A DNA stretch of 64,000 nt, taken from positions 480,001 to 544,000 of the forward strand of contig CAVSGI010000020.1 in the NCBI GenBank assembly GCA_963727445.1. Direction: 5' to 3'. A program made the translations under genes and the position numbers. How positions within the stretch are numbered: the stretch's first letter is position 1; each line of letters starts with the position of its first letter. This stretch comes from an uncultured delta proteobacterium (GTDB taxonomy: Bacteria > Myxococcota_A > Polyangia > Polyangiales > B10-G4). The notes beneath the pieces were generated by a model, which worked only from the letters and a program-made list of their open reading frames with translations, had not been told where the DNA came from and did no database searches. This document shows, piece after piece, positions 24,764 to 52,300 of the stretch.

Positions 24764-24774
24764 TTGTCGCGAGC

Positions 24775-27156
24775 TCAGAGCTCGCCGATCGGGTCCGGTG
24801 TCGGAAGCGACGTCGAGTCGAGATTCGTGCCGTTGTCGCGATAGGAGACGTCCTGTGACAACCGGTCCAGGTCGTAGCCGTCCACCTGGACGCACGCCCC
24901 GATGTCGGCGCCCTCCACCACGCCCGATTCGGTGTCGAAGGAGATCGTGAACGGGGGCTCATCCGCCAGGAAGAGTCCGCACGTCGCGGCGTCGACCACC
25001 GAAAAGCGAGTCAAACGAACCGCCGCGCCGAGCGCAGCCACGCCGTATCCGTAGCCCCGGTCCGGACAGTCGCAAGCCGAGCGCCCAACGTCTGCGATGG
25101 TCACGTCGCGCGCGTCGATCATGGCATCGCCGATGGCCACGAGTCCCAATTCGCTCGCGTGCTCGATGGCCAGGCGCTCGGCGGACACGGTCGCGTTCCA
25201 CTCGACCAACAGGGCGTACCCGAAGGCGAGGGAGCTCGTATCCGGCGCCGTGTCGCGAATCGTCGTATCGACGAGCGTCGCGGAGGCTTCGGAGTCGAGG
25301 ACCAAGAGACCGACCTCCTGCGCTCGGGCCACGAGGAGCCGCGTCGCCGAACATGTGGCAGACTGCTGAATCTCGACACCGTGCGACGTGACGTCCTGGA
25401 CGACGCCATCGGTGATCTCGAGCGAGGCATCGAGCGCGGCGACACCGACGCCATCGATGCGCTCGACGAGGAGGCCCGTGGCGCTGACGCGCGCGCCGGT
25501 CTGGGCGGTGACGCCCGTGATGACGTCGTCGCCCGACAACGGCGCCGACATGTCCCGAACGACCACCGATGAAAGGTCGGCGGTGGAATCCGCTCCGTTG
25601 GCGAGCACCCCGATGTCGTGGTTGCCGGTAGCAACGAGACGCGTCGCAGTGAGGCTCGCCCCTTCCTCGACCTCGATGCCTCGCCCCATGGGGAACGCGT
25701 CGTCTCTGGGAGTCGTCTCTCGAACCAGGACGTCCGTCAGCAAGAGCGACGTTCCGGCGCCGGTCGCGAAGACACCTACGTCGTGGTTGTTCGTCACCAC
25801 GAGCCGAGTCGCCTCGAATCCCCCGCCAGTTGCAGCTGTCACGCCCCTGCCTCCCGCGCTCGCGTAGACCCCCGGGACCGACTCGCGTACGACGGCGTCG
25901 GTGAGGCTCGCCAACGAGCCTTCTCCCGCGACGGTTACACCCGAGTCGGTGTTCCGCGTCGCCAACAGCCGCGTGGCTTCGAAGCGGGCGCCATCGTAGA
26001 CGCCGACGCCGTGGCCGAAGCGTGATCCCGCGGTTCGGGGCGCCGTGTCGCGCACGATGGCGTCCGTCAACGACATCGTCGTCGTGGCCCCCAAGACGCT
26101 CGCGCCGTGGTCGTGGTTGCCCTCGATGAGGACGCGACTGGCCTCGATGACGGGTCCGTCCTCGCCGCGAATCCCGAACCCACCCCCGCCGTCGAGGTCC
26201 TGCGATACGGTGTCGCGAATCACGACGTCGGACAGGTGCACCACCAATCCCTCACCGATCGCGAGGACGCCTGCATGACGGTTGCCGGATACAATCAATC
26301 CAGCGGCATCGAGCTGCCCTGCGCTCTCGACGTCGAGGCCACGACCCACACGCCCCGCCAGCGCACGCGTGTCGGTGACGACAAGTGACGCTGCGTCCAC
26401 CCGTCCGCTCGTCTGCACGACGATTCCGGCGCCCGTCGCCTCCGCGACGAGCACTCCGTCGAGCGAGAGCGCACTCCCGCCCTCGACGCGCAGACCCATC
26501 TGGGGAGCATCCACGATAGCGATGTTCTCGAGCACCGCCGGCTCTCCCCGTCCCATCGCCGCGACCACTCCCGCGGCGGGTCCACCGCCGTGGAGGATCG
26601 TCTCGGCGACACACGCCCCGACCAGGCGAACCCCCGAGCGGAGCGCAAACGTGCCGTCGTACTCGCCCTTCGCGAGCGCGACGGTCGTGCCGGCCCCGAG
26701 GCTTAAGAACGGAACCTCGCCGATGGACGAAAATGGCGCCCCGATGGACCCGTCGCCGCCCAGCGCAGCGCTGGCGTTCACGTAGACGATCGAGCCGCTC
26801 GCAGGCAGCCCGGCCGCGTAGTCCCCGGCGGGGCAGGGTTGCCCGATCGGCCTGCAGTCGGGTTCGCCGGGGAAATGCGCTTCGCCGAATGGGCATTCGC
26901 GCGCACCACCTTCGGGATACGGGTCACAGGTCGTGGCTTCATCCGTATCCGTGATCGTGCGCCATCCCATCGGGCACGGTGCGATGGCAATCGGCGGCAC
27001 GCCCCCCTCGAGCCATGGAATGTCCGGGGCCGCTGGTGTCGCGACGCCGCCGTCGCCGGCATCGGCCCCCACGTCGGCGTCGGGCAACGCTTCGGGCCCA
27101 TCGCCGCACGACGCGAGCCCTAGCGCCAGCAGGCCTGCCGCAGCCCATCGCCTCAC
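24775..27156 (-). CDS. Right-handed parallel beta-helix repeat lipoprotein
   Basis: LASC lipobox; Cys-rich N-terminus; GDGSIGAPF; repeated VVRDT...GRG.. units; paralog of 35447-38072. Confidence 0.8.
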   Translation of the reverse strand: MRRWAAAGLLALGLASCGDGPEALPDADVGADAGDGGVATPAAPDIPWLEGGVPPIAIAPCPMGWRTITDTDEATTCDPYPEGGARECPFGEAHFPGEPDCRPIGQPCPAGDYAAGLPASGSIVYVNASAALGGDGSIGAPFSSIGEVPFLSLGAGTTVALAKGEYDGTFALRSGVRLVGACVAETILHGGGPAAGVVAAMGRGEPAVLENIAIVDAPQMGLRVEGGSALSLDGVLVAEATGAGIVVQTSGRVDAASLVVTDTRALAGRVGRGLDVESAGQLDAAGLIVSGNRHAGVLAIGEGLVVHLSDVVIRDTVSQDLDGGGGFGIRGEDGPVIEASRVLIEGNHDHGASVLGATTTMSLTDAIVRDTAPRTAGSRFGHGVGVYDGARFEATRLLATRNTDSGVTVAGEGSLASLTDAVVRESVPGVYASAGGRGVTAATGGGFEATRLVVTNNHDVGVFATGAGTSLLLTDVLVRETTPRDDAFPMGRGIEVEEGASLTATRLVATGNHDIGVLANGADSTADLSSVVVRDMSAPLSGDDVITGVTAQTGARVSATGLLVERIDGVGVAALDASLEITDGVVQDVTSHGVEIQQSATCSATRLLVARAQEVGLLVLDSEASATLVDTTIRDTAPDTSSLAFGYALLVEWNATVSAERLAIEHASELGLVAIGDAMIDARDVTIADVGRSACDCPDRGYGYGVAALGAAVRLTRFSVVDAATCGLFLADEPPFTISFDTESGVVEGADIGACVQVDGYDLDRLSQDVSYRDNGTNLDSTSLPTPDPIGEL

Positions 27157-35446: not shown

Positions 35447-38072
35447 ATGCGCTACGATGTCGTCGTAGTGCCTCGCGTGGTTCTCTCAGCCGTCCTCCTC
35501 TCGACAATCGCGATGCTCGCGGCGTGCGGCGACGACGTCTCGGAGGGACCGGCGGATGGGGACGCGGGCGTCGTTCCCGATGGCTCGTTTCCGGACGTCG
35601 GGGTCGACTTCGAGATCGCCCCGCCCGAAGCGCCCGCCGCACCGGAGCTGCCGCGGCTCTCGCCTTGCCCCGAGGGGTGGACCGAGGTGCCCGGCACCGA
35701 TGGTGGCCCCACCGTGTGCGAGCCGTGGTCCGGGAGCGCGGAGTGCGCCGATGACGAGGCGCGTTTCCCCGGCGAGGGGTGCGCCGCGATCGGTCCCGCG
35801 TGTCCGCCTGGGCGCTTCGCCGCGGACGTCCCGGCCAGCGCGCTTCACGTCGATCCGGATGCACCCTCCGGCGGCGATGGGACGGCCGCGTCGCCTTTCA
35901 ACACGATCGCCGAAGCCCTGGCGGCGGCATCCGACGGTGACGTGATCGCGCTGTCGAAGGGCCGCCACGTGCCCCCTGGAGCCGTCGACGTGGCCGTGGA
36001 GATCCGCGGTGCTTGCGTCGGGGAGACCCTCCTCGCATGCGATCCTCCCGACACGACGACCCTCGCCGTTCAGATTCGGCGTTCGAACACGACGATTCGA
36101 GATCTGCATCTCACCGGTTGTCGCACAGGATTCTGGATCGCTCCCGAGGACGCACCCGACTACACAATCGATTCCGTCCTCGTATCCAACACGTTGCGAA
36201 CGGCGCTGGCCGCTTTCGGCGGGCATGGGACCCTTTCGAGCTTCGTGGTTCGCGATACGCGAGGCAGCGCCACCGACGACCAGGATGGGCGAGGGATCGT
36301 GGTGAACATGGGCGCAGAGGTCGTCGCCCAACGAGTCGCCGTCGAGCGGGCCGTGGGGTTTCCGGCGTGGGCCTACGGCGACGGGTCGCTCCTCGAGGTC
36401 GAGGACATCGCGGTGCGCGAGTCCGCGCCCTCCGGTATGAGCGGCTTCGACGGCGCCGGGCTCCTCGCGAACATGGGCGGCACGATCATCGCTCGTCGGG
36501 CGGTCCTCGAGGACAATCACCGCACCGGCGCGAACGCGCACTACGGCGGCATCATGGAGCTCGAGGACGTCGTCGTGCGTCGAACCCTCGTACAAGCGGG
36601 AGACGGCGCGTACGGAATGGCGTTCGTCGCCGGCGAGGGCTCGAGCCTCGAGATTCGCCGCGGATGGACACGAGACAATCCCCTCGGGGGAGCATGGGTG
36701 CGTGACGAGGGCTCGACGGTGACCATCGAAGATCTGGTCGTCCAGAATTCCCCCGGACATCCATCCAACGGCCTCGGCGGATTCGGGATCGCCGCCTATC
36801 AGCAGGGGCAGATGACCGCCTCGAGAGTGTGGGTGGAGGATTTGTCGGGTGTCGCGGCCATCGCCATGAGTGCCGGCTCGGCTCTCGACGCATCGGACCT
36901 CACGGCGAAGGGCATCATCGGCTTTCCGGGCACGGGGGAGCTCGGCGGCGGCGTCGTAATCGCGCTCGAAGCGGTCGGCGCGGTGCGACGCGCATCGGTC
37001 GAAGATGCACGGCTCACGGCGTACGCCGCGGTCACGGGGACGCTCGATCTCGAAGACGCCCAGGCTCGGCAGATTCACGAGCAGGACAGCGATGGGGCTC
37101 CGGCGTGCGCGTTCTGCTCGACCGAGGCGGGCACGATGACGCTCACTCGTGCGGTCGCCGACGAGATCTCGGGTGGCGCCGTCGCAACCGGGAGGCTCGA
37201 GATGCCGGGTGCGGTCCTGACGGGAAGCGACGTCCGGATCACGAACGTGCATGATGTCGCGGGCTCTGCTGCCGGGCTCAGCAACACCGACGGGAAGATG
37301 GAGCTGTCGCGCGTCTGGATCGAGGGCGCGACCATCGCGGGGGTCATCGGCACCGGCGCAGACGCCGTCTTGGAGCTCTCGGACCTGGTCATCCGCGACA
37401 TCCGAGCTCGAGATCTCCGACGGGTCCGCCGGCTACGGCGTTTCACTCACGGATGGCGTCACCGCCCACCTGACACGCACCCTGGTCTCCGAGGCTACGA
37501 CCGTCGGCCTGCTGCTCTCCGGCGCCGATCTCGACATCGAGACCGCGGTCATCCGCAATATGCGGGCAAACAGAGGCGGGACCCGTGCGCGCGGCTTCGA
37601 AGCGCAGGGTGGAGCACAGGTGACGGCCGCGGACCTCGCAGTCGAAGGGGCCGGTGACCACGGGATCATTCTCTTCGAGGCGGGAACGGAGCTGTCCGGG
37701 CGACAGGTCGAGGTTCGCGACACCGCCGGTGCACCCTGCGATCCCGCGGATTGCAACGTCTTCGGGATGGGCGTCTCCGTGCTGGACGATGCCCACGCGA
37801 GCCTCGAGGACTTCGTCGTCACGCGCAGCGCGCTCTGTGGCGTGCGGCTTGCCCGAGGAGGCACGGCCGATCTGAGCCGCGGGGAGGTCTCCTATGGGGT
37901 CATCGGCGCCAACGTGCAGACGGAGGGCTTCGACGTCGAGCGGTTGTCGATGGAAGTCAGCTACCACCACAACGAGACGAACCTCGATGCGGTGATGCTT
38001 CCCGTGCCTCAGGTCGCCCAACAGGCGACCCCGTTCACGCTCCCGACCCTGGAGTCACCACTTGTGCCCTGA
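35447..38072 (+). CDS. Right-handed parallel beta-helix repeat lipoprotein; +1 frameshift at ~37411
   Basis: LAAC lipobox; GDGTAASPF; same N- and C-terminal motifs as 24775-27156 (IGANVQ..GFD..RL...VSY..N..NLD). Confidence 0.8.
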
Positions 38073-39388: not shown

Positions 39389-39672
39389 ATGACGACATAC
39401 GCTGCAACTTTCGACCTGGGCGCCACCCAGAGCGTTTCGCCAGAGCGCGAAGCGCCGCCAGAGATCCAGCCTCCCGGTCCCCAACCACCAGCCGCCGAGC
39501 CCCCCGGGCCCACACCCCCCGAGATTCGGCCGCCTGGAACGCCGCCGCCCGAGGAATCGAGCCACCTCGCCGCTCGCCACCGGACATTGAGCCTCCCGAA
39601 ATCGAGCCCCCCGAGACCGAGCCGCCCGAGACCGAGCCGCCCTCGCGGGAGCCCAATCGTCATCCACGATGA
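39389..39672 (+). CDS. Small Pro-rich pentapeptide-repeat protein (EIxPP/ETEPP); apparent +2 frameshift at ~39554
   Basis: EIQPP, EIRPP in one frame; IEPP, DIEPP, EIEPP, ETEPP, ETEPP in another; 15-bp tandem units at ~39583-39642. Confidence 0.5.
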
Positions 39673-39679
39673 ACGACAA

Positions 39680-41251
39680 TCACTCCCCGCGCTTCTTCCC
39701 CCGCCGGCTTCGTCTTCGCCGCCGCCGCTTCTCCGGCTTCTTCGTCGTCCCCTCCGCCTTCGCCTCCGCGCGATCCACCGCCTGCTTCGCGGCGCGCTTC
39801 ACCTTCTTCGTGGCGAGGCAGCGGTCGCACTTGCCGCAGCGCGGGGGGCGGGCTTCGCCGAACCACTTACGGATGAAGGCGGAGCGGCAGCCGTCGGTCT
39901 GGGCGTAGGTGGCGACGGCGGCGAGGCGGCGGGCGTCCTCGCGGCGCATGGTCTCGAAGCGCTTGGCGAGATCAGTGGAGGAGGCCTTCATCTCGTCGCC
40001 GTTTACGCGCGGGACGAGGCGCTTGTCGCCACCGACCTCGATGAGCCCCAGCTGCTCGAGCTCGGCGGCGACGGCGCGGACGACGGTCTGGGGGACGCTG
40101 GCGGCGGTGGCGGCGGTCTTGACCGCGACCGGCCGGTCCTCGTCGGCCCAGGCGGCGAGGGCGTGGCCGACGCGGCGCACCTGCGCGGGGCTCGCGCGGC
40201 TCTTCTCGGCGAGGAAGTCCTGAATCGCGAGGTCGTCCTCGTCGTAGAGCAGCACGCAGCGCGAGGGCTTGCCGTCCCGTCCCGCGCGCCCCGCCTCCTG
40301 GATGTACTGCTCGAGGCTCCCAGGCACCTGGTAGTGCAGGATCGACCGGATGTCCGGCTTGTCGATCCCCATGCCGAAGGCGCTGGTGGCGATCATCAGG
40401 ATGCGCCGGCCGCTCTTCATGAAGCGGCGCTGACTGCTGGCGCGCTCCTTCTTCGTCATCTTGCCGTGGTAGCGGGCGACCGGGATCTGCGCCCGGCTCA
40501 GCGCGGCGAAGATCTGATCCACCGCCTTGGTGGTGCTGCAGTAGACGATGGCCGGACGCCTCAGGCGCCTCAGCAGCTGGCCCGCGCGTTCGAGCTTGAG
40601 ATTGCCGGACGCCTCGATCACCTCGAGGGCCAGGTTCTTGCGGTGCGGCGGCGCGCGGATCACCAGCGGCTCGTCCAGGTCGAGGCGCTCGGCGATGTTC
40701 GCCGTCACCTCCGGCGTCGCCGTCGCGGTGAGCGCCACGCAGCGCTCGATGCCGAGGGCGTGACGCTCGGCGCCGATGCGAAGATAGGCCGGCCGGAAGT
40801 CGTGGCCCCACTCCGAGATGCAGTGCGCTTCGTCCACGCAGAGGAGCGCGGGGGCGGCGGCCTCGAGCGCGGGGCGCGCCCACTCCGACTCGAGCGTCTC
40901 CGGCGTCGTCAGGATGATCAGCCGGCCGCCTTTCTCGATCCGCGCCAGCGTCTGCCGCTTCGTCGTGACCTTCAGCGTCGAGTCGAGGCGCGCCACCGGC
41001 ACGCGGCGGCTGCGCAGGCTCCGCTCCTGGTCGCGCATCAGCGCGATGAGCGGCGAGATCACCAGCGTCGGCCGCTCGCTCATCATCGCTGGCACCTGGT
41101 AGATCAGCGACTTGCCGTAGCCCGTGGGCAGCACCGCCAGGACGTCTCGGCCCTTCCGGATCGCGCGGATGGCGTCGCGCTGCTCCGGGTGGAGCTTCGC
41201 CACGCCGAAGACCTCGCGGGCGACCTTCGCCGCCGACTTCGCGCCCTTCAC
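39680..41251 (-). CDS. RecQ family ATP-dependent DNA helicase (no HRDC; basic C-terminal tail)
   Basis: LPTGYGKS, VDEAHCISEWGHDFRPAY, ALTATAT, ATSAFGMGIDK, QEAGRAGRDG, Zn site CR...CGKCDRC; GTGA overlap with the upstream gene. Confidence 0.95.
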   Translation of the reverse strand: MKGAKSAAKVAREVFGVAKLHPEQRDAIRAIRKGRDVLAVLPTGYGKSLIYQVPAMMSERPTLVISPLIALMRDQERSLRSRRVPVARLDSTLKVTTKRQTLARIEKGGRLIILTTPETLESEWARPALEAAAPALLCVDEAHCISEWGHDFRPAYLRIGAERHALGIERCVALTATATPEVTANIAERLDLDEPLVIRAPPHRKNLALEVIEASGNLKLERAGQLLRRLRRPAIVYCSTTKAVDQIFAALSRAQIPVARYHGKMTKKERASSQRRFMKSGRRILMIATSAFGMGIDKPDIRSILHYQVPGSLEQYIQEAGRAGRDGKPSRCVLLYDEDDLAIQDFLAEKSRASPAQVRRVGHALAAWADEDRPVAVKTAATAASVPQTVVRAVAAELEQLGLIEVGGDKRLVPRVNGDEMKASSTDLAKRFETMRREDARRLAAVATYAQTDGCRSAFIRKWFGEARPPRCGKCDRCLATKKVKRAAKQAVDRAEAKAEGTTKKPEKRRRRRRSRRGKKRGE

Positions 41252-42594
41252 TTCTTTCGAAGCAGCAGATGCGCGACGCCGGGACGACCCTTGGTGTCCT
41301 TCACCTGATTCACCCGCTCGACGACGAGACCTTGTCTTTCGAACCACGCGGACAGCTCCTCGAGCTCGTAGCGGCGACTGTAGAGCATCGTCACTGTACG
41401 CCCCTCGTCCTTGATGAGCAGATCGTGGCAGAAATTGAGCGAGCGCGGGACGCGGCTCGAATCATCGTCCTCGCGCACGATGACACGCATCTCGAGGTCG
41501 CTCGGCTTGCGCCCGCGCGCGGCTTCCCAGCGGCGGTAGGGGCCTTCGAGGAGCAGCCGCCGATTCGCTTCGGCCGCGGTCTCTTCCCGCTCGGTGTCCG
41601 TGAGCCGAAAGAGCGGATCCTTCTCGACCCGATCGGGCCTGAGCCCCACCTCGATCCAGAGCAGATCCCCCGAGCGCATCAGCACGTCGACCTTCTCGCG
41701 CAGGAACGTCTCCTCGTCGCGCACGTTGCCGAAGACGTTGCCGAGGATGAGGATCAGCCTCAGGCCATCCTCCGCGGGCAGACGGCTCGTCGGCATGCGG
41801 CCGAGGAAGCTCAGAGGGCCCTCCTCGAAGTCGGCGCAGCAGGCGATCACCGAGCCGTGGCTCGCCCCCCGATTCGACAGCGTCTTGCGCGTGTCCTGCG
41901 CCGCGCGCGAGAGCAGCGCGATGGAGACATCGGCCAGACAGAGGCTCAGCCACGGCAGCGTCTGGTTCTTCTCCTTTTCGAGATCGAGGAGGCGGTTCAA
42001 GAGGCGCACCTCCTTGCCGCCTTCCCCGGGGCCGAGGCTGATCACGTCGAGGCCGCGGACCCGCGCCTTGGGCGCAAAGCCCATCGCGTCGGCGATGGGG
42101 CCCTTGGCCTGGCCCCGTGTCCCGCGCGAAGGGTCGAGCCACTCCTCGGCGCGCTCCTCCACGCCGCGCAGCCACGCGGATTGCTCGTAACCCGTCCGGA
42201 TCAGGTTCTCCCAGGCGAGCGCGCCCTGGGGCTCGAAGTAGAGGAAGCGGTGGCCGAGGTAGTCGTAGTGGATGCGGTCGCGGAGCTGGCGCTGCAGGGC
42301 CGACGGCCCCGAGCCGTTCTCCACCTCGACCGCCACCAGCCCGAGGTCGGGATCGATCGACAGGTCGCCCGCGCGCATGCGCAGCGCCTCGATCCGCGCT
42401 GCCAGGCCGCGCTTCACGGCCGCGAGCTTCTGCGGCTTGAGGTTCTGTACCGAGCCCGAGCGCCAGTTGGCCACGTTCTCCACGCTCACGCCCGCGAGGG
42501 CCGCGACGTCCTTGTCGGATTCGATGCCCAGCTCGCACGCGATCGTCAGGAAGAGATCGATGAGCTGGCTCGGCGTCTTTTCCTTCTTCACCAC
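41248..42594 (-). CDS. XRE-like HTH fused to EgtD-like (Methyltransf_33) class I SAM methyltransferase
   Basis: HTH SDKDVAALAGVSVENVANWRSG; MTase motifs RFLY, ISLGPGEGGKE, LADVSIALL, ADFE, ILGNVFGN, SRRYE. Confidence 0.78.
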   Translation of the reverse strand: MVKKEKTPSQLIDLFLTIACELGIESDKDVAALAGVSVENVANWRSGSVQNLKPQKLAAVKRGLAARIEALRMRAGDLSIDPDLGLVAVEVENGSGPSALQRQLRDRIHYDYLGHRFLYFEPQGALAWENLIRTGYEQSAWLRGVEERAEEWLDPSRGTRGQAKGPIADAMGFAPKARVRGLDVISLGPGEGGKEVRLLNRLLDLEKEKNQTLPWLSLCLADVSIALLSRAAQDTRKTLSNRGASHGSVIACCADFEEGPLSFLGRMPTSRLPAEDGLRLILILGNVFGNVRDEETFLREKVDVLMRSGDLLWIEVGLRPDRVEKDPLFRLTDTEREETAAEANRRLLLEGPYRRWEAARGRKPSDLEMRVIVREDDDSSRVPRSLNFCHDLLIKDEGRTVTMLYSRRYELEELSAWFERQGLVVERVNQVKDTKGRPGVAHLLLRKK

Positions 42595-42601
42595 GTTCGC
42601 C

Positions 42602-43726
42602 TCAGCCCTCGGTTTCCTTCATGGCCCGCTGGATCACGGTCCAGGTGGCGCCCGCGTCGGTGGTGACGTCGTCCCAGCGCCCGGAGAAGCGACCACAGAA
42701 CGAGCTCTTGAGCACTTCGGGGAGCATGCGCCGCTGATTGTCCGCCATCAGCGGGTGCTTGAGATAGATGCAGACCTCTTCGGTCGCGCGCACCGACAGG
42801 CTCGCCGCGAGCTCGGGCGAGCGCCGCACGGCGTCGGCGATGCTCACGATCTCCTCGATCAGCCCCTTGCCCAGCTCGGGATGGCGGGCGCGGAGGATCT
42901 TCACCTCTTCTTCGACTGGCGGATAGTCCATCTGAAGCGGGGCGAAGCGATCGAGCTGCGCGGCGTCGATGCCGAAGGTCGCCGTGAACTCCGAGCCGCG
43001 GTTCACGGCGGCGATGAATTGGACGTTGTCGGGGATCTCCATGAAGCGGTTCTCGGTCGGATGAAAGAGCTTGCGCGTCGTGTCGAGCGCCGGCATCAGC
43101 GCGTTGCGCGCGCTCTCCTGGCAGCGGTTCAGCTCGTCGAGGAAGACGAGGTAGCGCTTGTCGGGATGGTGGACCGCGTCTTCGAGGGCTTCGAGGAGGT
43201 CGGTCTTGATGAAGTCGGTCACCGGCTGACCCGTTTCCGAAGCCCGCACCTGGATGGTGGCGAGAAAGTCGCTCGCCTCGACGACCGCGCCGCAATTGAA
43301 GAAGACGAACTCGAGGCCGAGGGACTGGGCGATGGAGCGCGCCAGCGTGGTCTTGCCGCATCCCTGGGGCCCGTCGAGGAGGATGTTCAGGCCAGACTCG
43401 AGGAGCACCTGGAGCTTCTTCGAGACGATCGGGTCGAGCCAGACGCCCTCGATGCGAAAGGGCGCGGGGCGCACGTAGCTCACCTCGATGGCGCCGCGGT
43501 CGGGGCGGTCGGCCTTGGTGATCTTGTCGATCTTCACGAGGCACGGGACGCCCGGCATCACCCGCGCGTCGTCCGAGAGCACCACCTTCGGCGCGCGTCG
43601 TCCGTCGAGGTGCGTGGCGCGATAGCGGAACTTCGAGTCCTCGACGGGGTTGGCCCAGAAGGTCGACTCCATCACGTCGCCGACCTTGATCTCTTCGAGC
43701 GTCAGCTTCCCTACAGTCGTGCTCAC
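42602..43726 (-). CDS. MoxR-type (AAA_5) ATPase with ~85-aa N-terminal beta-rich domain
   Basis: Walker A GPQGCGKT, Walker B VFLDELNR, NALMPALD, AAVN, DAAQLDRF, SVR. Confidence 0.93.
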   Translation of the reverse strand: MSTTVGKLTLEEIKVGDVMESTFWANPVEDSKFRYRATHLDGRRAPKVVLSDDARVMPGVPCLVKIDKITKADRPDRGAIEVSYVRPAPFRIEGVWLDPIVSKKLQVLLESGLNILLDGPQGCGKTTLARSIAQSLGLEFVFFNCGAVVEASDFLATIQVRASETGQPVTDFIKTDLLEALEDAVHHPDKRYLVFLDELNRCQESARNALMPALDTTRKLFHPTENRFMEIPDNVQFIAAVNRGSEFTATFGIDAAQLDRFAPLQMDYPPVEEEVKILRARHPELGKGLIEEIVSIADAVRRSPELAASLSVRATEEVCIYLKHPLMADNQRRMLPEVLKSSFCGRFSGRWDDVTTDAGATWTVIQRAMKETEG

Positions 43727-43735
43727 CGTCTTCTC

Positions 43736-46700
43736 CTACGCTGCCATCGCCTTTTTGACCAGGCCAGCGATGATGTTCCCGAAACGCCGCACGGCGACGT
43801 CGAATTCGTCCTCCATCACCTCGACGTAGTGAGGGAAGCACTTCTCGGCCAGGGGCCGCACCGCGACCTGCGCGCAGCACATCCCCTCGCGGCGGCTGAG
43901 GCGGGTGACCAGCGCTTTGAGCGCAGCCACCGAGCATTCGGTGGGCAGACCGTCGCTGATCATCACCAGGAGCTTCGCGCGGCGCGAGGAGGCGCGGGCC
44001 ACTCGCGAGACGTGGAAGAGCGCCGCGGCGTCGTTGTTGCCCCCGCCCGCGTTCAACGAGGCGACCGCGGGGCGACGCGCGTTGCCCGCGTCGTAGATGA
44101 CACGGTCGGTGAAGCCGAAGAGGCGGACGTCGATGCCCGGCAGGCCGCGGGCCGCGTCGGCCAGGAGCACGCCGAAGGCACGCGCTCGCTCCATGCTCCG
44201 GCCGTGCATCGAGCCGGAGCAATCGATGATGATGCCGAGGAAGAGATCGCTGGTCACCTCGGTCTCGCGCGAGATCAGCATGCGGGGATCGCGTCGGGTC
44301 ACGACCGCCGTCGCCCGGGAGCGATCGAAGCGGCGGCCTTTCAGGCGCATACGCCGCTGGACCAGCGACAGCCCGAGGTCGGCCAGGTAGCGCCGCATGT
44401 GGCGGGCGTGTCGCGCGACGCGGCGGCTCTCTTCGCGGTGGCGCGCCGCGTCGTAGGGCACGTGCTCGATCTGGGTGATGAGATCGAAGCGCTCGTCGGG
44501 GTTCACGTTGAGGATCAGCTTGCCGCCCGGGCTCGCCGGGCCGTCTCTGCCGCGCCTCGGGTCGAGGACGCGCTCGACTTCGCGCTGCACCTCGTCGTCC
44601 TCGATCCCCTCGCCGTGGATGATCCGATCGGCGCCGTCCTCGCCGAGGGCTTCGTGTCCGCCGAAGCTCTCCATGATGCTCACCTCGGAGCCAAACATCT
44701 CTCGCAGCCGATAGCTGATGGCGAGGAGGCTCCGCATGTCCCCCTTGCGGAAGGACTTGTCGAACATCTCGAGGGCCTGTGCGACGAGGGGATCGCCGTG
44801 GCGCTTGCCGAGCCCCATGCGGAGCGCGCGTACGAACATCGCGAAGCGCATCCCCGTGCGCTCCATCTCGCTCAGGAGCGAGCCGTTGTCGATGCGCACC
44901 GACGCTGGGTTGCGCGCGACGCCGAGACGGATGCGGGTCAGCACGGCGAAGGCCCGGCTCTGGAGCATGTCGAAGAGGGTGAAGACCGGCAGCTCGCGAG
45001 CGGAGTGGGCGAAGGCGTAGGCCACCAGCCGCTTGAGTCGATCGCCGTAGGCCGCGTCCGTCGCGCGGAGGTTTCGCTCGAGGTGCTCGTCGGCGACGAG
45101 GTTCAGAAGGCCGTGGATGCCCTCCATCTGCGCCTCGGCCCAGACCTTCGCCTCCTCGTCTCCCCAGTGATAGACGTGGTGGCCGATCTCGTGGAGCACG
45201 AGCGCCTCGACGATCTCGCGCCCGTGGCGCTCCTCACGCAGCAGGGGTAGCGGGCTCACGTGAATGCGATTGTCGCTCAGGCGCGTGTAGCCGAGGCCGC
45301 GGCCGCCGATCATGTGGAAACGGAAAACCCGGCCGGTGAGCTCGCGCCCCACGCGGACGCCCCAGGCGAAGGTGTCGGCGATGGCGAGGAGCTTTCGCGT
45401 GCGGCTGGGCTTGCGGGCGAGGCGCTGCACCACCGCCTGCCGCAGAGCGTCGTTCTGACACTCGGTGAGCAGCAGGGTGAGCAGCGCGTCCCGCACCTCG
45501 CGCGGCGTCTGCTCGTGGTCGAGGAGGGTGAGGACCTTCTGTTCGTTGGCGAGCTTGGGACCGGCGAAGAGGGCGGCGTGGGCCACGATCTCGAGTAGGC
45601 GCGGCTCGAGCCCGACGAGGAGCGACGCCTCGACCACCTCGCCGCGGAAGTGCTCGGCGACGAGGATGGGGTAGCCGAGGACGTCGCCGCAGCGAAGCAG
45701 GGCCGCCGCGGCGCGCCTCCGCAGATCGCCGATACGCTTGGTGCCCTGACGGAGGAAGGCGCGCAGCGCTTCGTCGTCCGCGTCGTTCGAGAGACCCTCT
45801 TCTTCGCGGCCGAGGAGCAGCTCGACCGCCGGTCGATAGGCGTGCGGATGGGGCGAGACGGTGAGCCGACGCGCGAGCGCCAGCGGGTCGCCGCCCGACT
45901 TTTCGAGCCGCATCCAGTCTTCGGTGCGAAACCACGAGCCCGACTCGGCGTTCGCGGCAGCGATGGCGCTCTCGAGCTCGGCCGCTTCGCCTCGTTCGAG
46001 GAGGCCGAGGGCGAGGCGGAAGCGGAGCTCGGGGTCGGTCGCGGCGTCGCGGGTGAGCGCGTGCAGCGCTTCGAGGTGCGGCGAGTCCGGCCAGAGCGCG
46101 ATGCTGTCCGCGATGGCCGACCACTCGACGGGCCGGGTCTCGCCGGTGAGCAGGCGCACCAGTCGCGCGATCCCCTCGTCGCCCAGCTCGACCAGACGCA
46201 GCGTGGCTTCGTGAACGACCTTCGGGTTCTTATCGCGGCAGTGCGCCTCGAGCGCGTCGAGATCCGTGAGCGCGGCGATCGTTTCGAGGAGCCTCTCTTC
46301 GGGTGGGGGCCGGTGAACGCGGCGCGCGCGGGCACGGGGAGGTAGGCCGCTCGCCGAGATCCACGGGGCGAGGACTCGGCGGGTCTCGTCGTCGAAATCC
46401 GTCATGCGCGCGGCCACCGCCGTTCGTCGTGCGTGGAGCGCCGGCAGGCCGATGCGCGCGTCGTGGAAGGCCATCAGGATCGCGGCGGCGTGTCGTCCGA
46501 GCTCCGTGTCGAGGGCGTCGACGGAGAGATCGAGGAGCGCGTCGTCGAGCAACGCTTCGAGGCGCCCGCGATCGCGCCACCGCCAGATCGACAGCACCCG
46601 CGCGACCGCGGCGAGGGCGCTCTGCCGGATGGTCTTCGACGGGGCGGCCAACAGGTCGGCGATGCCCGCCGTCACCCCGCCCTCGAAGGCCGCGAGCCCC

Positions 46701-48802
46701 TCCATGAAGGCGAAGGCGTGCGGCTCGAATCGGTAGAGGAAGGCGTGGCCCAGAGGCGGCAGGTTCTTCGCCGAGCGCCACACGGAGATCGCCCCCTCGG
46801 CGAAGGCGCGCCGGAAGCCCGCGTCGTCCTCGGCGTAACGCTCGAGCATGACGGCGACCGCGTCGGGCGCGTCGTGACTGCCGAGGAGCGCCACGCACGC
46901 GGCGCGGCACGGCGCTGGCGGGGGACCGCGCCGCGCGAGGGCCTCGGTCAGACCCCGATGCGGCCCCGATAGGCACGGTTGGAGCGCGTCTTCGAGGGCC
47001 GCCTCCGTCGCGTCAACGATCTGCCGTTCCACTTCCGGCGGCAGGAGCACGACCTCGGCGTCCCGACGGGCAGGGACCGGGGCCTCCTTCTTCGAAGGAA
47101 GGCGCGCCGCCGCCCAGTCGGCGATGGCCGGGGAGACGTGAGTCGCCAGCTCGTGCGCGAGGGCGAGCTCTTTGCCCCAGGGAACGGTGGTCGCGTGCGG
47201 CAGCACCTCGAGGAGCTTCTTCAGCTTCGGCGTGGGGAGCGCGCTCACCCGGCCGACCCACGCTTCGGCGCTCTCGCGCTTCGCGACGCCGCCGAGGGTC
47301 GCGAGGCCGACCGGGCTCTGCGCGGGATCGGGCAGATCGAGGAAGATCTGGAAGAAGCGATCCAGGTGCGCGTCGTCCAGCACCTCGGCGAGGCGCGAGG
47401 CCACCCGCTCGATCTTGTTGACGGCGAGGCGCGGCGACAGCGTCGGCTCGAGGCGCGCGAGGCGCTCGAAGCAGTCGAGGAGCGTCTCGGCGCTCATCGC
47501 GTCGAGGAAGAAGAGCTCGTCGGCCTGCGCCGCCTGCACCAGGAAGGCCAGGACCTCGCCGCGTCGCGAGGGCGCCTTGCCGACGATCAACGCCATCAGC
47601 CATTTGCGGCCTTTGGAGGAGGTGTCGAGGAGCGTGAGGAAGGGCGCGTTGCGCTTCATGTCGGTGAGGAACGCCGAGATGACCTCGTCGACGTCGAGCC
47701 ATCCCCAGAGCGCCGAATAGGGGTTGCTGCGGCAGTAGTGGAGCACCGCGCCCAGCGCCCAGACGTCGAGCACGTCCTTCCTGGGGCGGACCAGGTCGCT
47801 CTTCACCAGCGTCACGACCTGCTCGTCGTTGATACGGGGGATGCGGCGGCCGTTTTCGTAGACGCGCTCGAGCGAGGAGTAGCGAACGTCGCGGGGGACC
47901 CAGGGCGCCGTCAGGAAGGCGGGGAAGAAGAGCGCGCAGATCCCGGCGGCGCGCGGCAGAAACCAACGGCGGCGCCGGAAGGAGACGAGGAGCGAGGCCA
48001 CCACCCGACGGCGGAGCGGGAAGGGAACACCGAAGAGCGCGGTCTCGAGCTGCGCGAAGAAGGTCTCGCGCACCGCTTCGTCGGCATCGTCGTCGAGGAA
48101 GAGCGAGAAGAGATCGTCCAGGGCGTCGGCCTGATCCGTGTCGGTGTCGCCCCTGGCCGTCAGGATGCGATGGACCTCGCTCGGACTCCGGCGATGGCTG
48201 CGGGCGAGCCAGGCGGCCGTCTGCGGCCAGGCGATCTTCGAGAGCCACAGGCGCGCTTCGTCGCGGGTGACGACGCCCGATGCGGCGAAGTCGAGGAGCG
48301 CGGGGATGGCGTTGGGCGGGACCTCGACGCCCCGGGCACGGATGGCGCCGGCGATCGATTCGTCGGCGAGGAGAAAGAAGGCGTAGCTCGCCGCGCCGAC
48401 AGGTGCGCCGCCTGTGGCGGCGGCGCGCCGCACCTCGGGATCGGCGTGAAAGAGCGCGTGCACCCAGCGGAGGGGCTGCTCCGTGGCGGAGGTATGAAGC
48501 GCCGACAGCGCGGAGATCTTCACGGCGGGATCGCCGTCGTCGAGGGCACCGACCATCGCCGGCCAAGCGCTCGGCCCTTCGGCGCCGGCCACCACTGCGA
48601 GCGCCGCGGCGCGAACGCGCGCGTCGGGATGATTCAGCACCCGCGGCATCAATCCGAGGAAGACGACCCGCATGTGAAGCGGCTCCCGCGCGAGCTCTTC
48701 GAGGAGACCCGCGAGGTGCTGACCCTCGTGCAGCTCGGCCCGGAGGTGCGGCTCCATCCGTTCGTCGTGGGCGAGGAGCCAGAAGAGATCGAGATCGCGC
48801 AT
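43736..48802 (-). CDS. Giant HEAT/ARM-repeat protein with HEXXH metallopeptidase-like motif and C-terminal vWA domain
   Basis: HEAT repeats HPDARVRAAA, DGDPAVK, HADPEVRRAA; LHEIGHH at ~45176-45196 followed by NLVADEHLE; MIDAS DCSGSM (~44206-44225), GGGNND, MISDGLP. Confidence 0.88.
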   Translation of the reverse strand: MRDLDLFWLLAHDERMEPHLRAELHEGQHLAGLLEELAREPLHMRVVFLGLMPRVLNHPDARVRAAALAVVAGAEGPSAWPAMVGALDDGDPAVKISALSALHTSATEQPLRWVHALFHADPEVRRAAATGGAPVGAASYAFFLLADESIAGAIRARGVEVPPNAIPALLDFAASGVVTRDEARLWLSKIAWPQTAAWLARSHRRSPSEVHRILTARGDTDTDQADALDDLFSLFLDDDADEAVRETFFAQLETALFGVPFPLRRRVVASLLVSFRRRRWFLPRAAGICALFFPAFLTAPWVPRDVRYSSLERVYENGRRIPRINDEQVVTLVKSDLVRPRKDVLDVWALGAVLHYCRSNPYSALWGWLDVDEVISAFLTDMKRNAPFLTLLDTSSKGRKWLMALIVGKAPSRRGEVLAFLVQAAQADELFFLDAMSAETLLDCFERLARLEPTLSPRLAVNKIERVASRLAEVLDDAHLDRFFQIFLDLPDPAQSPVGLATLGGVAKRESAEAWVGRVSALPTPKLKKLLEVLPHATTVPWGKELALAHELATHVSPAIADWAAARLPSKKEAPVPARRDAEVVLLPPEVERQIVDATEAALEDALQPCLSGPHRGLTEALARRGPPPAPCRAACVALLGSHDAPDAVAVMLERYAEDDAGFRRAFAEGAISVWRSAKNLPPLGHAFLYRFEPHAFAFMEGLAAFEGGVTAGIADLLAAPSKTIRQSALAAVARVLSIWRWRDRGRLEALLDDALLDLSVDALDTELGRHAAAILMAFHDARIGLPALHARRTAVAARMTDFDDETRRVLAPWISASGLPPRARARRVHRPPPEERLLETIAALTDLDALEAHCRDKNPKVVHEATLRLVELGDEGIARLVRLLTGETRPVEWSAIADSIALWPDSPHLEALHALTRDAATDPELRFRLALGLLERGEAAELESAIAAANAESGSWFRTEDWMRLEKSGGDPLALARRLTVSPHPHAYRPAVELLLGREEEGLSNDADDEALRAFLRQGTKRIGDLRRRAAAALLRCGDVLGYPILVAEHFRGEVVEASLLVGLEPRLLEIVAHAALFAGPKLANEQKVLTLLDHEQTPREVRDALLTLLLTECQNDALRQAVVQRLARKPSRTRKLLAIADTFAWGVRVGRELTGRVFRFHMIGGRGLGYTRLSDNRIHVSPLPLLREERHGREIVEALVLHEIGHHVYHWGDEEAKVWAEAQMEGIHGLLNLVADEHLERNLRATDAAYGDRLKRLVAYAFAHSARELPVFTLFDMLQSRAFAVLTRIRLGVARNPASVRIDNGSLLSEMERTGMRFAMFVRALRMGLGKRHGDPLVAQALEMFDKSFRKGDMRSLLAISYRLREMFGSEVSIMESFGGHEALGEDGADRIIHGEGIEDDEVQREVERVLDPRRGRDGPASPGGKLILNVNPDERFDLITQIEHVPYDAARHREESRRVARHARHMRRYLADLGLSLVQRRMRLKGRRFDRSRATAVVTRRDPRMLISRETEVTSDLFLGIIIDCSGSMHGRSMERARAFGVLLADAARGLPGIDVRLFGFTDRVIYDAGNARRPAVASLNAGGGNNDAAALFHVSRVARASSRRAKLLVMISDGLPTECSVAALKALVTRLSRREGMCCAQVAVRPLAEKCFPHYVEVMEDEFDVAVRRFGNIIAGLVKKAMAA

Positions 48803-48879
48803 CGGCGGGAGGGCGATCCTGCCATTAAAGTCGTCGATTCGACGCGAGGGGTTGCGCGCTGACGAATCGGTCTTACCCG

Positions 48880-49360
48880 TGGTCTTCCTCCCTGCGGAAG
48901 GGGGTTCAACGTGATCTCGTGTTCATTTTGCCCAACAGTCGAAGACACACAGTCGACGGGTGGTTGCGGTGCCCACCGCGGCCGGTGAGATCGTGAGCCA
49001 TCCCTTCTTCACGCGGTAAGAGGACGAGCCCTTCCAATTGCGGGGGGCCCTCGGGCCGCGCCCGCATGGCGGCTTCTCGGGTGGGAGCAGCCGGGCGCGG
49101 CGCTCGGTGCGCTTTGTGACCACCGCGGCGCTGGTGTTTCACCGGCGCCATGCGCGCCTTTGAGCCGGACCGATGGTCCGCCGAGCGATCGAAAGATCCC
49201 TCCCATGCAGCCGATGAATGAGGGGTGCGCGCTCTCGGCTCGAGCTTCGTTCGATGGCCAGTGGCGTGGCGACTTGCGCCCACGGCCCCACAGAACAGGC
49301 TCGCGCGGAGTGCGCTGCATCCCGCCGAGTCGCGGCTGGCACCCCAGCGACCCGTCGACG
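48880..49360 (+). ncRNA. Candidate large structured non-coding RNA
   Basis: No credible ORF in 48803-49369; long closing stem 48952-48999 / 49298-49359; at least six internal hairpins; G-U pairs and a GAAA tetraloop favour the + strand. Confidence 0.6.
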
Positions 49361-49369
49361 AGCGTAGTC

Positions 49370-52300
49370 CTACGCGCCGCGCCCGTTCTGCCGGAGCGCG
49401 CGGCGGAAGCGGAGCGCGGTGTCGCTCGCCCAGAATCGCATCAGGTGGGTGGCGGTGTTGTCCTCGCCGACCTTCTCACCCCGCGTGCGCTCGAGCACGC
49501 GGCACGCGGCGGCGATGTCGTCGCAGACCAGGAGCGCGGCGCGCGCGGCGGTGAGCTCGACGTCAGCGACCCATCGAGTGACGCTCGGCGGCGGAGCGCT
49601 GGCGAAGCGCGCCGCCGCTTCCTCCACGAGCTTGCGGCTGCGGCGGGGGATCACCCGGGCCACCTGCCGTGCGTGTCCATCGAGGTCGGTCGCGCTGCCG
49701 TAACCCGGCACCTGCGAGTGCGTGGCGGCCTTCACCAGCGTGCTCAACTCGGGCGTCGGGACGCGCATCACCGGATAGGTCTCGCGCGCGAGGTGCGCCA
49801 GCGGCCTCGCGAGCAGAAATGCGAGCTCGGCCGTCGGCAGGTTCGCCGCCCAACCCGGCACCATGATCGCTGGCGGGCTCGCCAGCTCGACCGTCGCGTC
49901 ACGCGCCTGGCCGGTGTGCACGTAGAGATCGAAGTCGGTGACGCCGAAGATGGTCGCGATGCGGTCGGCGAGGTTGCGCGTCGAGTTCGCCGCGCCCGCC
50001 CGGATCCGGTCGCGCTTGGACACGCCGTACTCCGCGTACTCCACGGGGTAGATCTTGCCCAGGGCCTCGGCGAGGGCGGCGGTCATGTCGGCCGCCGGGC
50101 TGTCGAGGGCGGCGTGGACCTGGATCTGACGGATGCCGTGATCGCCGAGGAGCCCCGGCGGGGCTTCGCCCGCGCGAGGGCGCCGGGCCCTCAGAGTCAT
50201 CTGCTCTTCGGGCTGGCCTTCGCCCAGCACCATCAGCGACAGCAGCACGGCCACTGACTCTTCGGCGTCGCCCATGCTCGCCAGCGCGCTCGAGAGCGCA
50301 CGCCACACGTCGACCTCGGTCACGTCGTGGTGAAGGAAGCGCCGGAGCGTCTCGACCGAACGATCGTAGCTGCCCATCGCCGACAGCCTGTTCGCGAGCT
50401 CGAGGGACAGGGTCACCGCCCCTGGCTCGCGCTCGATGCCTTCGCGCAGCGTCGAGAAAGCGCGGTCGGCCCGACCGAGGTGGTCGCCGAAGACCTCGGC
50501 GATCGCCAGGTAGGTGGGCGCGGTGGTCTGACCCATCCGGTTCGCGAGATCCTTGTAACGCATGAGCGCACCGAGATAGCCGTCCCAGGTCGCGTTGCCG
50601 CGCTTGCCGATCATCGCGCGGTAGTCGCCGGCCGCGGTGCCCTCGGCGCCAGACAGCGAGACGGCTTCGAGCAGCGTCTTGGCGCACTCGTCGTGCTTCT
50701 TGAGCGCCTTTTCGATGCGCGCGACCTCGACCAGGGCGTCGGCGCGCTCCTGCGGGCCCTCGGCCAGCTCGGTGAGGCGGCGGGCGAGGGTCAGCGCCTC
50801 GTCACGCTTGCCCAGGCCGAGCTGCAGGCGGCAGAGACGGGTGAGGGCCTCGCGGTTCGCGTCGTCCTGCACCAACACCGCGCGGAGGCTGCGCACCGCT
50901 TGGTCGACGTCGCTCAGATGATCGTCGCAGATCGCAGCGAGGCGCAGATGCGCGCCGGCGAGCACCGAGCGGTCGGTCGTGTGCTCCACGAGGGTGCGGA
51001 GCGCTGCGGCCGCTTCGCTCCACTGACGCGCCCGTTCGAGGTAATCGGCGCGCCGCAGCAGCGTCGGGCCGTGCGTGGCGACGCGGGCGAGGGCCCGGTC
51101 GCAGGCGGCCAGGGCGGCGGGGAGATCGCTGCGATGGTCGGCGTGGAGCTCGGCGACGAAGCCGTGCAGATCGGCGGCCGCTTCGGGCCGTTGTGCCCTT
51201 TGCGCCGCGCGCCCCAGGGCGTCGATCAGATACGGCACCTGGCCGAGGGAGACGAGGACCGAACGCAACCTGCGCGCCACCTCGCGGTTGTCGGGGTCGA
51301 GATCGAGGGCACGCTCGAGATCCTTCACCGCGCCCTGATGATCGCGCGCCTCTCCGCGCACCACGGCGGCCTGCACCAGGAGCTGCACCGCCAGGTCACG
51401 GTCGCCCGTCACGCGCGCCTCGAGCTCCGCAGCTTCGCGGAGCGCGTCGGCGTCGCCCTCCGCGCGCGCGACGCGGGTGAAGCCGCGCACCACGCTCAAG
51501 CTCTCGCCGTCGCTCTTGATCGCCGCCCGGTAGGTCTCGAGGGCCCCTGGACCGCCGACCCGTTCGAGGAGCTCGGCGACCTTCGCCTGGTGGAAGGCTT
51601 GCACCGTGGGGTCCGCCGCGGCGGTCGCGAGGCGTGCTTCGAGGCCGAGGAGCGCAGCACCGTCACCCCTGACTCGCGCCATGGCTGCGAGCCCTTCGAG
51701 CGACTCGACGTCCCCGCGCGCGACCTCGAGGATCGCCTCGTAGGTGCGCGACAGCTCGTGGTCTCCCTTTTCGGAGCGCACCAGCTCGCGAAGCGCGGCG
51801 GCCTTGGCGGCCGGGTCGGTGATCACCTCGGCCTGACGTCGGAAGACGTCGGCGAGGCCTTCGACGTTGTTGCTCCGGTCGTAGATCGCTTCGAGGGCGA
51901 GGAGAGCGGCGATGTGGCGCGGCGACTTCGCGAGGATCTGCTGGTAGCAGCGCGCCGCAGACTCGAGGTCGTCGAGGCGCCCCTCGTAAACGGCGCCGGC
52001 GCGGAGCAGCGCGTCGTTCGAGTCTTCGTCCGCCGCGGAGAGGTTCGCCTCTTCCATCAGGCTGTCGGCGAGCACCTTCCAGGATTTCTTGTCCGAGAGG
52101 AGCCGCTGGCGTGCCTCCATGGCCGTCGCGTGGGCGGGCATGGCGGAGAGCGCCTTGTCGTAGGCGGCGAGGGCCTTGTCCGCCTGCTTCAGGCGCTCTT
52201 CATAGAGCTCCGCGAGCTCGACCGCGACGTGCGCCTTCTCCTCGTCGTTCTGGAGCGCGTCCACGCGTTGCTCGAGCGCGTTCGCGAGGTCCGGCCAGCG

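Follow-up and report, generated by a model that had tools for sequence, protein, structure and literature searches.

Introduction

MoxR ATPases form hexamers that work through a partner whose von Willebrand factor A (vWA) domain bears a metal-ion-dependent adhesion site (MIDAS), as set out in the available part of PMC7159879. In one kind of couple, represented by a jumbo-phage pair and by CobS/CobT-like proteins, a zincin metallopeptidase precedes a vWA with an intact MIDAS in the same chain, in so far as the accessible part of PMC7824862 describes it. Here we report a pair alike in this respect, together with a large structured RNA, from a 64,000-nucleotide (nt) stretch of the genome of an uncultured delta proteobacterium (assembly GCA_963727445.1, contig CAVSGI010000020.1, positions 480,001 to 544,000), to which we refer as the window. 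The RNA is inherited together with a 1688-residue HEAT-zincin-vWA protein (the big protein) and a MoxR ATPase in myxobacteria and planctomycetes. With a probability of roughly 0.5, we propose that the three parts form a ribonucleoprotein (RNP), a zinc protease that is gated by the RNA and reset by MoxR. The 400-nt double-pseudoknot RNA would then serve as the obligate regulatory subunit in a split-midasin-like, ATP-driven solenoid metalloprotease outside CRISPR.

The proteins of the module make up a MoxR/vWA pair with a fused peptidase, outside the DUF2201 pairs, which we take to be another MoxR and metallopeptidase-vWA couple: the Pfam models DUF2201_N and DUF2201 match none of 35 members of the big-protein family (E <= 0.05), nor residues 1135-1401 alone. 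Unlike the other peptidase-vWA pairs, it has a 1100-residue solenoid, a beta domain in the MoxR and a dedicated 400-nt RNA. Unlike the jumbo-phage pair it is cellular, and viral contigs give remote relatives only, at the level of the vWA (27-34% over 67-137 residues). The nearest folds of the ATPase and of the vWA are those of NorQ-NorD, CbbQ-CbbO and Rea1/midasin, from which the module differs by its fused peptidase, its RNA partner and the absence of a known client gene nearby; furthermore, midasin is a single chain with six AAA modules, whereas the MoxR here is a separate protein.

The initial annotation of the locus drew a link to Ro60. In the Ro60-Y RNA system too, according to the available part of PMC4201824, a helical-repeat and vWA protein stands beside a co-inherited non-coding RNA (ncRNA), whose ends pair and which is mostly encoded on the strand of the protein. 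Unlike Ro60, however, the big protein lacks the TROVE domain, is three times longer and carries a peptidase; and unlike a Y RNA (80-130 nt, with a Ro-binding motif and tRNA-like arms), the RNA measures ~370-410 nt, has two pseudoknots and does not hold that motif in its consensus. TROVE was not found in three of the five carrier genomes tested, among them the genome of the window (G000, 86% complete), and Ro60 is not among the top fold matches of the big protein, of which residues 489-1688 were modelled (pTM 0.60), although its helical repeats and vWA may still close into a toroid as those of Ro60 do. Since a search of the big protein gave no TROVE match, and its vWA is of the Rea1-MIDAS/NorD type, the link is one of analogy only. 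To our knowledge, Ro60 has no MoxR partner.

The ternary conflict systems built on MoxR and vWA (VMAP, iSTAND, FtsH and beta-propeller variants; PMC7159879, in the part available) resemble the module in their MoxR-vWA core and in their myxobacterial and planctomycete hosts. In contrast to those systems, the module has neither a conserved third protein nor a variable effector part, and an RNA takes the third place. Neither the VMAP-type N-terminal MoxR motifs nor the variant P-loop of the FtsH and beta-propeller systems, as the same part of that source gives them, can be read in the sequence or consensus of the module's MoxR. Its bpMoxR score is 16.7 bits, against a cut-off of 27.

Several large ornate ncRNAs are known from bacteria, OLE being one. 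ROOL, GOLLD and raiA are, like the RNA described here, several hundred nt long, with multistem junctions and pseudoknots (PMC5737381, available part). By the same partial account they are associated with tRNA or prophage loci, whereas the RNA described here is tied to one protein pair and has no Rfam match. The RNA class is apparently undescribed: the open-licence literature that we searched yielded no description of it, nor any couple of MoxR and vWA proteins that includes an RNA. What appears to be new is the RNA class and its tie to the pair; the protein pair alone would be a variant of known MoxR/vWA couples. Finally, in Craspase (Cas7-11 with TPR-CHAT) an RNA controls a solenoid-bearing protease. 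The module differs from Craspase in having no CRISPR array or guide, a zincin rather than a caspase fold, and an ATPase partner. By analogy, its genomic logic seems closest to that of Ro60-Y RNA, and its proposed output would be closest to that of Craspase.

A conserved, double-pseudoknotted RNA

The initial annotation pointed to a foldable gene-free region directly upstream of the big gene, and this region (48803-49369) indeed beats shuffled sequences, with z -4.41 on the plus strand and z -2.44 on the minus strand. The stronger folding is thus on the plus strand, antisense to the operon in the window, a strand that the annotation did not give. Homologous intergenic sequence was recovered by BLASTN in 44 loci and by profile in 55 of 87.

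The conserved core of the RNA occupies 49055-49213 on the plus strand. To our model R1 it scores 98.8 bits (a value high by construction), and the next best segment of the window 14.7. The core opens with helix P1a (49055-49062/49094-49101), followed by P1b (49070-49074/49089-49093). Between their 5' arms lies a 6-nt bulge, 49064-49069, which pairs with 49203-49208 as pseudoknot 1, while the loop of the capping helix, 49079-49084, pairs with 49120-49124 as pseudoknot 2. Helix P2 (49102-49111/49153-49165) contains a 3-nt U-rich bulge. Another stretch that complements the 6-nt bulge exactly, 49148-49153, is found within a variable hairpin region and could offer an alternative pairing in G000 only.

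The evidence for this structure is comparative. We aligned the copies with MAFFT, blind to structure, and retained 41 of 53, the other 12 having long insertions or poor 3' anchoring. In these 41 copies 94.9% of the cells in the core pairing are paired, and 29 of 37 pairs show two-sided change. None of 500 shuffles reached this pairing, and structures slid along the alignment fell to 36-51%; likewise, covariation is 0.46, compared with 0.23 in shuffled and at most 0.13 in slid controls. Most 3' ends of this alignment were set at the predicted partner, which biases it toward pseudoknot 1. For that pseudoknot, the partner sites in all 53 copies were also located by an independent flanking motif. 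At least five of the six Watson-Crick pairs then form in 39 copies, against 9.9 +/- 2.5 when the bulges are swapped among copies, and all six form in 26 (2.3 in swaps), across 27 distinct bulge sequences; a second set gave 27 of 39, against 9.9. In pseudoknot 2, the terminal loop and a partner 40-47 nt downstream co-vary in several ways.

Because G-U pairs (77) far outnumber A-C pairs (16), the RNA is assigned to the strand on which they are read as G-U. The spacing of its anchors is spread evenly modulo 3 (29/27/23), and the best frame is free of stops in at most 54 of 80 copies; we therefore dismiss a coding origin of the motif. Thus, we conclude that the RNA is real, non-coding, conserved and covarying, and that it contains two pseudoknots. 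At the gathering score, Rfam has no match in the window or in 14 homologous loci, with chance-level hits only at E <= 10, and ARAGORN finds nothing tRNA-like in the RNA.

The full-length molecule is a candidate ncRNA of ~410 nt, 48952-49359 on the plus strand, whose predicted ends pair over 29 bp (48952-48980 with 49331-49359) to form a terminal helix. The arms of this inverted repeat show compensating changes in the syntenic locus L015. Comparison of the window with L015 by eye adds a peripheral helix around the core (48999-49011 with 49215-49227) and a further helix (48992-48999 with 49298-49305). Family-wide, the peripheral helix receives modest support, 13 of 61 copies exceeding the 95th percentile of swaps, as does helix P0c (42 of 61 copies, compared with 32.5 +/- 2.5 in swaps). 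Helices analogous to the peripheral ones are present in a consensus of 18 related copies, hand-picked as one lineage, which contains 86 pairs over ~370-390 nt, 46 of them with two-sided change, and ends in a closing terminal helix and then a U-tract. Across the family, 28 of 80 copies have a terminal helix that exceeds the 95th percentile of swaps, and in 14 of these 28 it is followed by a U-tract, against a background of 18%. L144 and L153 retain both features ahead of other genes. This pattern speaks for a discrete unit. In these two loci an upstream DNA-methyltransferase-like gene, recognised by eye, diverges from the RNA copies, which are not followed by the big gene.

A search of metagenome contigs that started from the RNA gave 42 matches; 36 score 54-110 bits to the model and 7 match the pattern only. 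Their nested pairs covary too, in an alignment fitted to the model, and 17 have the start of a big gene downstream. A scan for sigma-70 promoters and local terminators around the RNA of the window found none. Six expression runs contained just 5-6% of the sequence words sought. In two soil metatranscriptomes, contigs from relatives span 48927-49134 and 48950-49170, without strand or ends; since a DNA run yields a similar contig (48950-49260), these are no proof of transcription.

Inheritance and position of the RNA

Among the 48 loci with at least 700 nt available upstream of the big gene, the RNA is present in 44, a weak match in three, and none was seen in the DNA available for one. Stricter filters were used when whole genomes were searched for the RNA and the big protein. 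Across 151 genomes of the order, the RNA was matched (E <= 0.01) in 21. The 15 matches of at least 49 bits all fall among the 16 genomes with the big gene; the other six (26-34 bits) fall in genomes without it and are taken as noise, as is a second match of 29 bits in G118. The sixteenth carrier of the big gene, G143 (82% complete, in 540 contigs), holds only residues 944-1686 of the protein. In the planctomycete class of genome G063, two of 150 genomes have the RNA and the same two have the big protein, and all ten genomes chosen for a distant MoxR contain all three parts. Every carrier genome has one strong RNA copy. A quick tree places the Planctomycetota rows within a starred clade, with Polyangiaceae.

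The position of the RNA is the main ground for an alternative reading, namely that it is a cis-regulatory leader (a riboswitch or an autoregulatory element) of the big gene and MoxR, and that the pair is otherwise ordinary. We surveyed 80 distinct copies. The big gene lies downstream in the same sense in 67 and is present there in shortened form in two more; one contig is too short to tell. Moreover, the RNA is kept beside the big gene in four of the five genomes in which MoxR lies apart, several loci have no more than ~45 nt between the 3' arm of the terminal helix and the start codon, and the compact double-pseudoknot core with its invariant bases could be an aptamer. In the remaining 10 copies, however, the available flanking DNA shows no big gene after the RNA. 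In the window it is antisense to the big gene, as is an intact copy in L023; in G102 it lies 26 kb from the big gene, before a convergent gene; in G306 it is downstream of MoxR on the opposite strand; and in G063 the RNA, the big gene and MoxR are mutually distant on one chromosome, the RNA by more than 1 Mb. These displaced copies score fully (98.8 bits in G000, 101.7 in G102, 77.8 in G063 and 95.1 in G306). In addition, the covarying 3' domain and paired ends go beyond the needs of a switch, and no Rfam riboswitch matches. The intact antisense and unlinked copies therefore favour a trans-acting RNA, and we regard a leader as unlikely, although it deserves to be taken seriously.

The protein pair

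The big gene (43736-48802) and the MoxR gene (42602-43726, 374 residues) both lie on the minus strand. The big protein begins with an alpha-solenoid (residues ~1-1140) in which Pfam recognises HEAT_2 at 51-129 (E 3.7e-10). There follow a zincin-like metallopeptidase, with HExxH at 1204-1208 and NxxxDE at 1234-1239, a helical linker, and a vWA domain with an intact MIDAS (D1527, S1529, S1531, D1591 and D1617; DxSxS at 1527), near which CobT_C/VWA_2 match weakly (1518-1618). All 35 full-length rows share H1204, E1205, H1208, N1234, D1238, E1239 and the MIDAS residues. The peptidase and vWA retain 62-63% identity, and the solenoid 24-34%. Of 1.84 billion representatives searched, 380 clusters match at E <= 1e-30; in the best 150 of these, most members are 1540-1880 residues long, and the shorter ones are probably fragments. 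The Atlas places the big protein in an unnamed cluster of 211 members.

A structure model of residues 489-1688 (pLDDT 87) shows the solenoid, a zincin-like alpha/beta unit, the helical linker and the vWA, arranged as a long helical arm that ends in the MIDAS. For the vWA and the preceding arm, two fold matches are tied: Rea1-MIDAS (Z 18.9, root mean square deviation (rmsd) 2.8, 194 residues aligned) and NorD (Z 18.4). The solenoid gave a generic importin-type repeat match; the vWA dominated the lists of fold matches, so that the solenoid and peptidase folds were barely probed.

In the MoxR (Pfam AAA_5, E 1.7e-14), none of the 79 rows departs from the Walker A and Walker B motifs, N242 or R260. 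The Walker motifs and arginine finger expected of the MoxR clade are thus intact, and the best fold matches of the protein are CbbQ (6l1q; Z 22.8, rmsd 2.9, 252 aligned) and NorQ (9qh4; Z 22.5). Before the ATPase lies a five-strand beta domain (residues ~18-87), for which searches within the whole MoxR found no Pfam, Atlas or fold match. The N-terminal region of the MoxR (window 43421-43726) is highly conserved, and we would guess at an OB-like role for the domain, in binding RNA or a partner. The catalytic residues of the peptidase, the MIDAS and the ATPase are thus all intact, from which activity is predicted.

These folds bear on another explanation, in which the RNA itself is the functional centre, as a scaffold, sponge or ribozyme, and the proteins are its assembly or remodelling factor, the peptidase trimming a bound protein, in the manner of a split Rea1/midasin on an RNP or of Ro60 on Y RNA. 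The tied matches of the vWA and the MIDAS-tipped helical arm agree with such a role, as does the size and ornateness of the RNA; midasin is also the best sequence match of the MoxR profile in the PDB, a rank inflated by its six AAA modules. Yet we recognised no catalytic motif in the RNA, clustering of open reading frames (ORFs) in 83 loci yields no further conserved gene as a possible client, and the zincin site is invariant, which argues that proteolysis is central. We consider this explanation quite improbable.

Neighbouring genes

In the window, two further minus-strand genes follow MoxR: an EgtD-like methyltransferase (41248-42594, 448 residues) and a RecQ-family helicase (39680-41251, 523 residues counted from a GTG start). 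The initial annotation described the four as tightly linked, and the ORF coordinates reproduce its gaps of 9 nt and 7 nt and its GTGA overlap. Each of the four is single-copy in G000. The annotation also gave the methyltransferase a helix-turn-helix (HTH). The methyltransferase has a partial match to Methyltransf_33 (residues 180-317, E 2.2e-8), and the HTH just a faint LacI match (E 0.084). The helicase carries DEAD, Helicase_C and RecQ_Zn_bind.

We asked which of these neighbours travel with the module. A search with the ATPase found 96 relatives, and we took the best 80 as MoxR loci; they are 64-78% identical, come mostly from Myxococcota and Planctomycetota, and the closest are Polyangia, which points to a myxobacterium as the probable host of the window. 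The big gene lies within 10 kb in 68 of the 80 and adjoins MoxR directly upstream in 60. Neither the methyltransferase nor RecQ occurs in any of the 80, of which 60 offer at least 3.5 kb of downstream sequence; in seven further loci the methyltransferase was seen once, together with the tetratricopeptide repeat (TPR) gene, in L015, 3 kb downstream of MoxR. ORF clustering in the 83 loci ties no third protein family to the pair, the next real cluster being protein kinases (24 of 83 loci, at varying positions); kinases and metabolic genes are the recurring neighbours.

The genomes of the order agree. The methyltransferase is present in 13 of the 151, the big gene in 16 and both in six, so that seven of 13 methyltransferase genomes lack the big gene and 10 of 16 big-gene genomes lack the methyltransferase. 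In G001, a genome of the same genus (86% complete), the interval from the TPR gene to the methyltransferase gene, where the module would lie, consists of 1.9 kb of unrelated sequence, and the RNA, the big gene and MoxR were all not found; the best RecQ matches there (42-44% identity) lie on other contigs. From the neighbour survey and the empty site of G001, we conclude that the conserved module consists of the RNA, the big gene and MoxR, ~6.8 kb in all, at a variable site. The methyltransferase, RecQ and the upstream TPR gene are ruled out as members by the 80-locus survey and the G001 site; the methyltransferase is a chromosomal neighbour, and RecQ a local one. A five-part system that includes the methyltransferase and RecQ could appeal to the tight spacing in G000 and to L015. 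Given the counts above, and given G001, in which the methyltransferase and TPR genes are neighbours although the module is absent, it is largely refuted and we give it hardly any credence. The neighbourhood proposed in the initial annotation is thus conserved as regards MoxR and the upstream RNA, and not as regards the methyltransferase and RecQ.

Several observations concern these surroundings. The methyltransferase, with its possible N-terminal HTH, forms an unannotated family of its own (13 of 151 genomes, 52-82% identity), and RecQ has long basic tails on both ends, with short imperfect tandem repeats immediately past its stop (39560-39680). At the module's site in G001 (L189:6880-8810), a lipoprotein-like ORF with cysteine-rich repeats and, on the opposite strand, an ORF resembling an outer-membrane barrel were noted by eye. 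Downstream of MoxR in L063, L064, L065, L069, L072 and L084 lies an opposite-strand cluster of three genes (~148, 345 and 366 residues), without Pfam matches, which recurs in that lineage only. Three records titled Enterobacterales, Enterobacteriaceae and Alcaligenaceae (L043, L044 and L077) carry the ATPase, two of them with the RNA and big gene; they may be misbinned contigs or transfers. In L015 (4256-14700; genome G023, 54% complete) the big gene, MoxR and methyltransferase are each split by frameshifts, probably long-read assembly errors. Elsewhere in the window, a beta-helix ORF (35447-37657) overlaps a second ORF (37251-38072) in such a way that the two resemble one frameshifted gene, and an ARAGORN tRNA-Gln (24734-24812) overlaps two ORF ends without Rfam support and is possibly spurious.

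Defence

A defence role was also suggested for the locus. We ran PADLOC on the four linked genes and on 82 of 134 listed immediate neighbours. The big protein and the methyltransferase have no match, MoxR has weak generic ATPase matches only, and RecQ is matched by the DpdF and PsyrT models as a generic helicase, without their partner genes in the four neighbours scanned. Among the 82 neighbours there is one match (E <= 1e-25), a generic sigma-54 activator, and no effector swapping is seen among homologues of the big protein; these results speak against the suggestion. As the initial annotation had stated, no named system fits the gene combination: we identified no matching known system.

In type III toxin-antitoxin systems, a tandem-repeat pseudoknot RNA accompanies an endoribonuclease toxin. 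The module might act in a comparable way, or in abortive infection, with the RNA restraining a toxic protease that is freed when the RNA is lost on infection. Strict co-inheritance and patchy presence (16 of 151 and two of 150 genomes), presence and absence at one site within a genus, and spread across phyla would all be expected of such a system, and the hosts include bacteria of the multicellular type, which the available part of PMC7159879 describes as enriched in MoxR-vWA conflict systems. Apart from the PADLOC results and the kinase and metabolic neighbours, however, the big protein falls into a single length class (~1540-1880 residues), MoxR is 64-78% identical across phyla, Pfam shows no nuclease domain, and viral contigs hold no close relative. 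The RNA, moreover, is single-copy, and no tandem repeat array was found in 48700-49450. We therefore find this possibility very doubtful.

An inversion in the window

The antisense orientation of the RNA in the window reflects an inverted segment. Relative to L015, nearly all of the intergenic region is reversed: ~48930-49376 matches the opposite strand of that locus (62% over 476 columns, E 1e-26), and the TPR end keeps a plus/plus alignment. A 7-bp inverted microhomology at 48831-48837 and 49355-49361 possibly marks the breakpoints, which would place the inverted segment at 48831-49361. The inverted RNA retains both pseudoknots, and the big gene and MoxR are intact. A recombinase-driven invertible switch was considered and rejected, and a one-off inversion is preferred, because the 29-bp arms flip along with the RNA, homology continues for 25 nt beyond one arm, and a scan of 38 proteins of the window (a few short ORFs fell outside it) revealed no recombinase.

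Discussion

The initial annotation imagined an RNA-associated machine. A conserved, covarying RNA, co-inherited with the HEAT-HExxH-vWA protein and MoxR, upholds that part of the idea; the methyltransferase, RecQ and the defence role drop out. The RNP that we propose would operate as follows. The RNA, its ends paired, would persist as a stable transcript and would in most cases be transcribed together with its partner gene. It would bind the 1100-residue solenoid, a conserved basic helical segment after the peptidase (~1315-1340), or both, and would decide whether the peptidase reaches a client gripped at the MIDAS. That the MIDAS grips a client peptide is carried over, by analogy, from NorQ-NorD, CbbQ-CbbO and Rea1. 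The MoxR hexamer would act on its vWA partner, and ATP hydrolysis would open or reset the complex. The whole may serve an accessory stress or quality-control function in large-genome myxobacteria and planctomycetes.

Several points weigh against the RNA-gated protease. The 67 sense-upstream copies lie mostly 220-490 nt from the big gene, as a leader would, and five of the 10 exceptions rest on 0.9-1.5 kb of metagenome contig. The carriers are related by kinship and hence non-independent, and at least three of the RNA matches in the order, those in G000, G023 and G059, fit R1 by construction. The solenoid, the proposed RNA-binding part, is the least conserved region (24-34% identity), and domain searches found no known RNA-binding domain in the big protein or in MoxR. 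The inversion in the window may have been inactivating, or may reflect misassembly. Finally, the transcript, the binding, the gating of the peptidase and the stress role are themselves predictions from sequence.

Few bacterial RNAs are large and complex, and for most of those no protein partner is known, whereas this one comes with two. Since both proteins are strictly co-inherited with it and have intact catalytic residues, the function of the RNA is directly testable. If the leader reading were true, the RNA would still be a new double-pseudoknot riboswitch candidate. If the RNA-gated protease is true, it would constitute a new class of bacterial RNP, and RNA partners may be hidden across the MoxR/peptidase-vWA family. 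The link to the RNA thus offers a handle on the widespread, unexplained couples of MoxR and metallopeptidase-vWA proteins.

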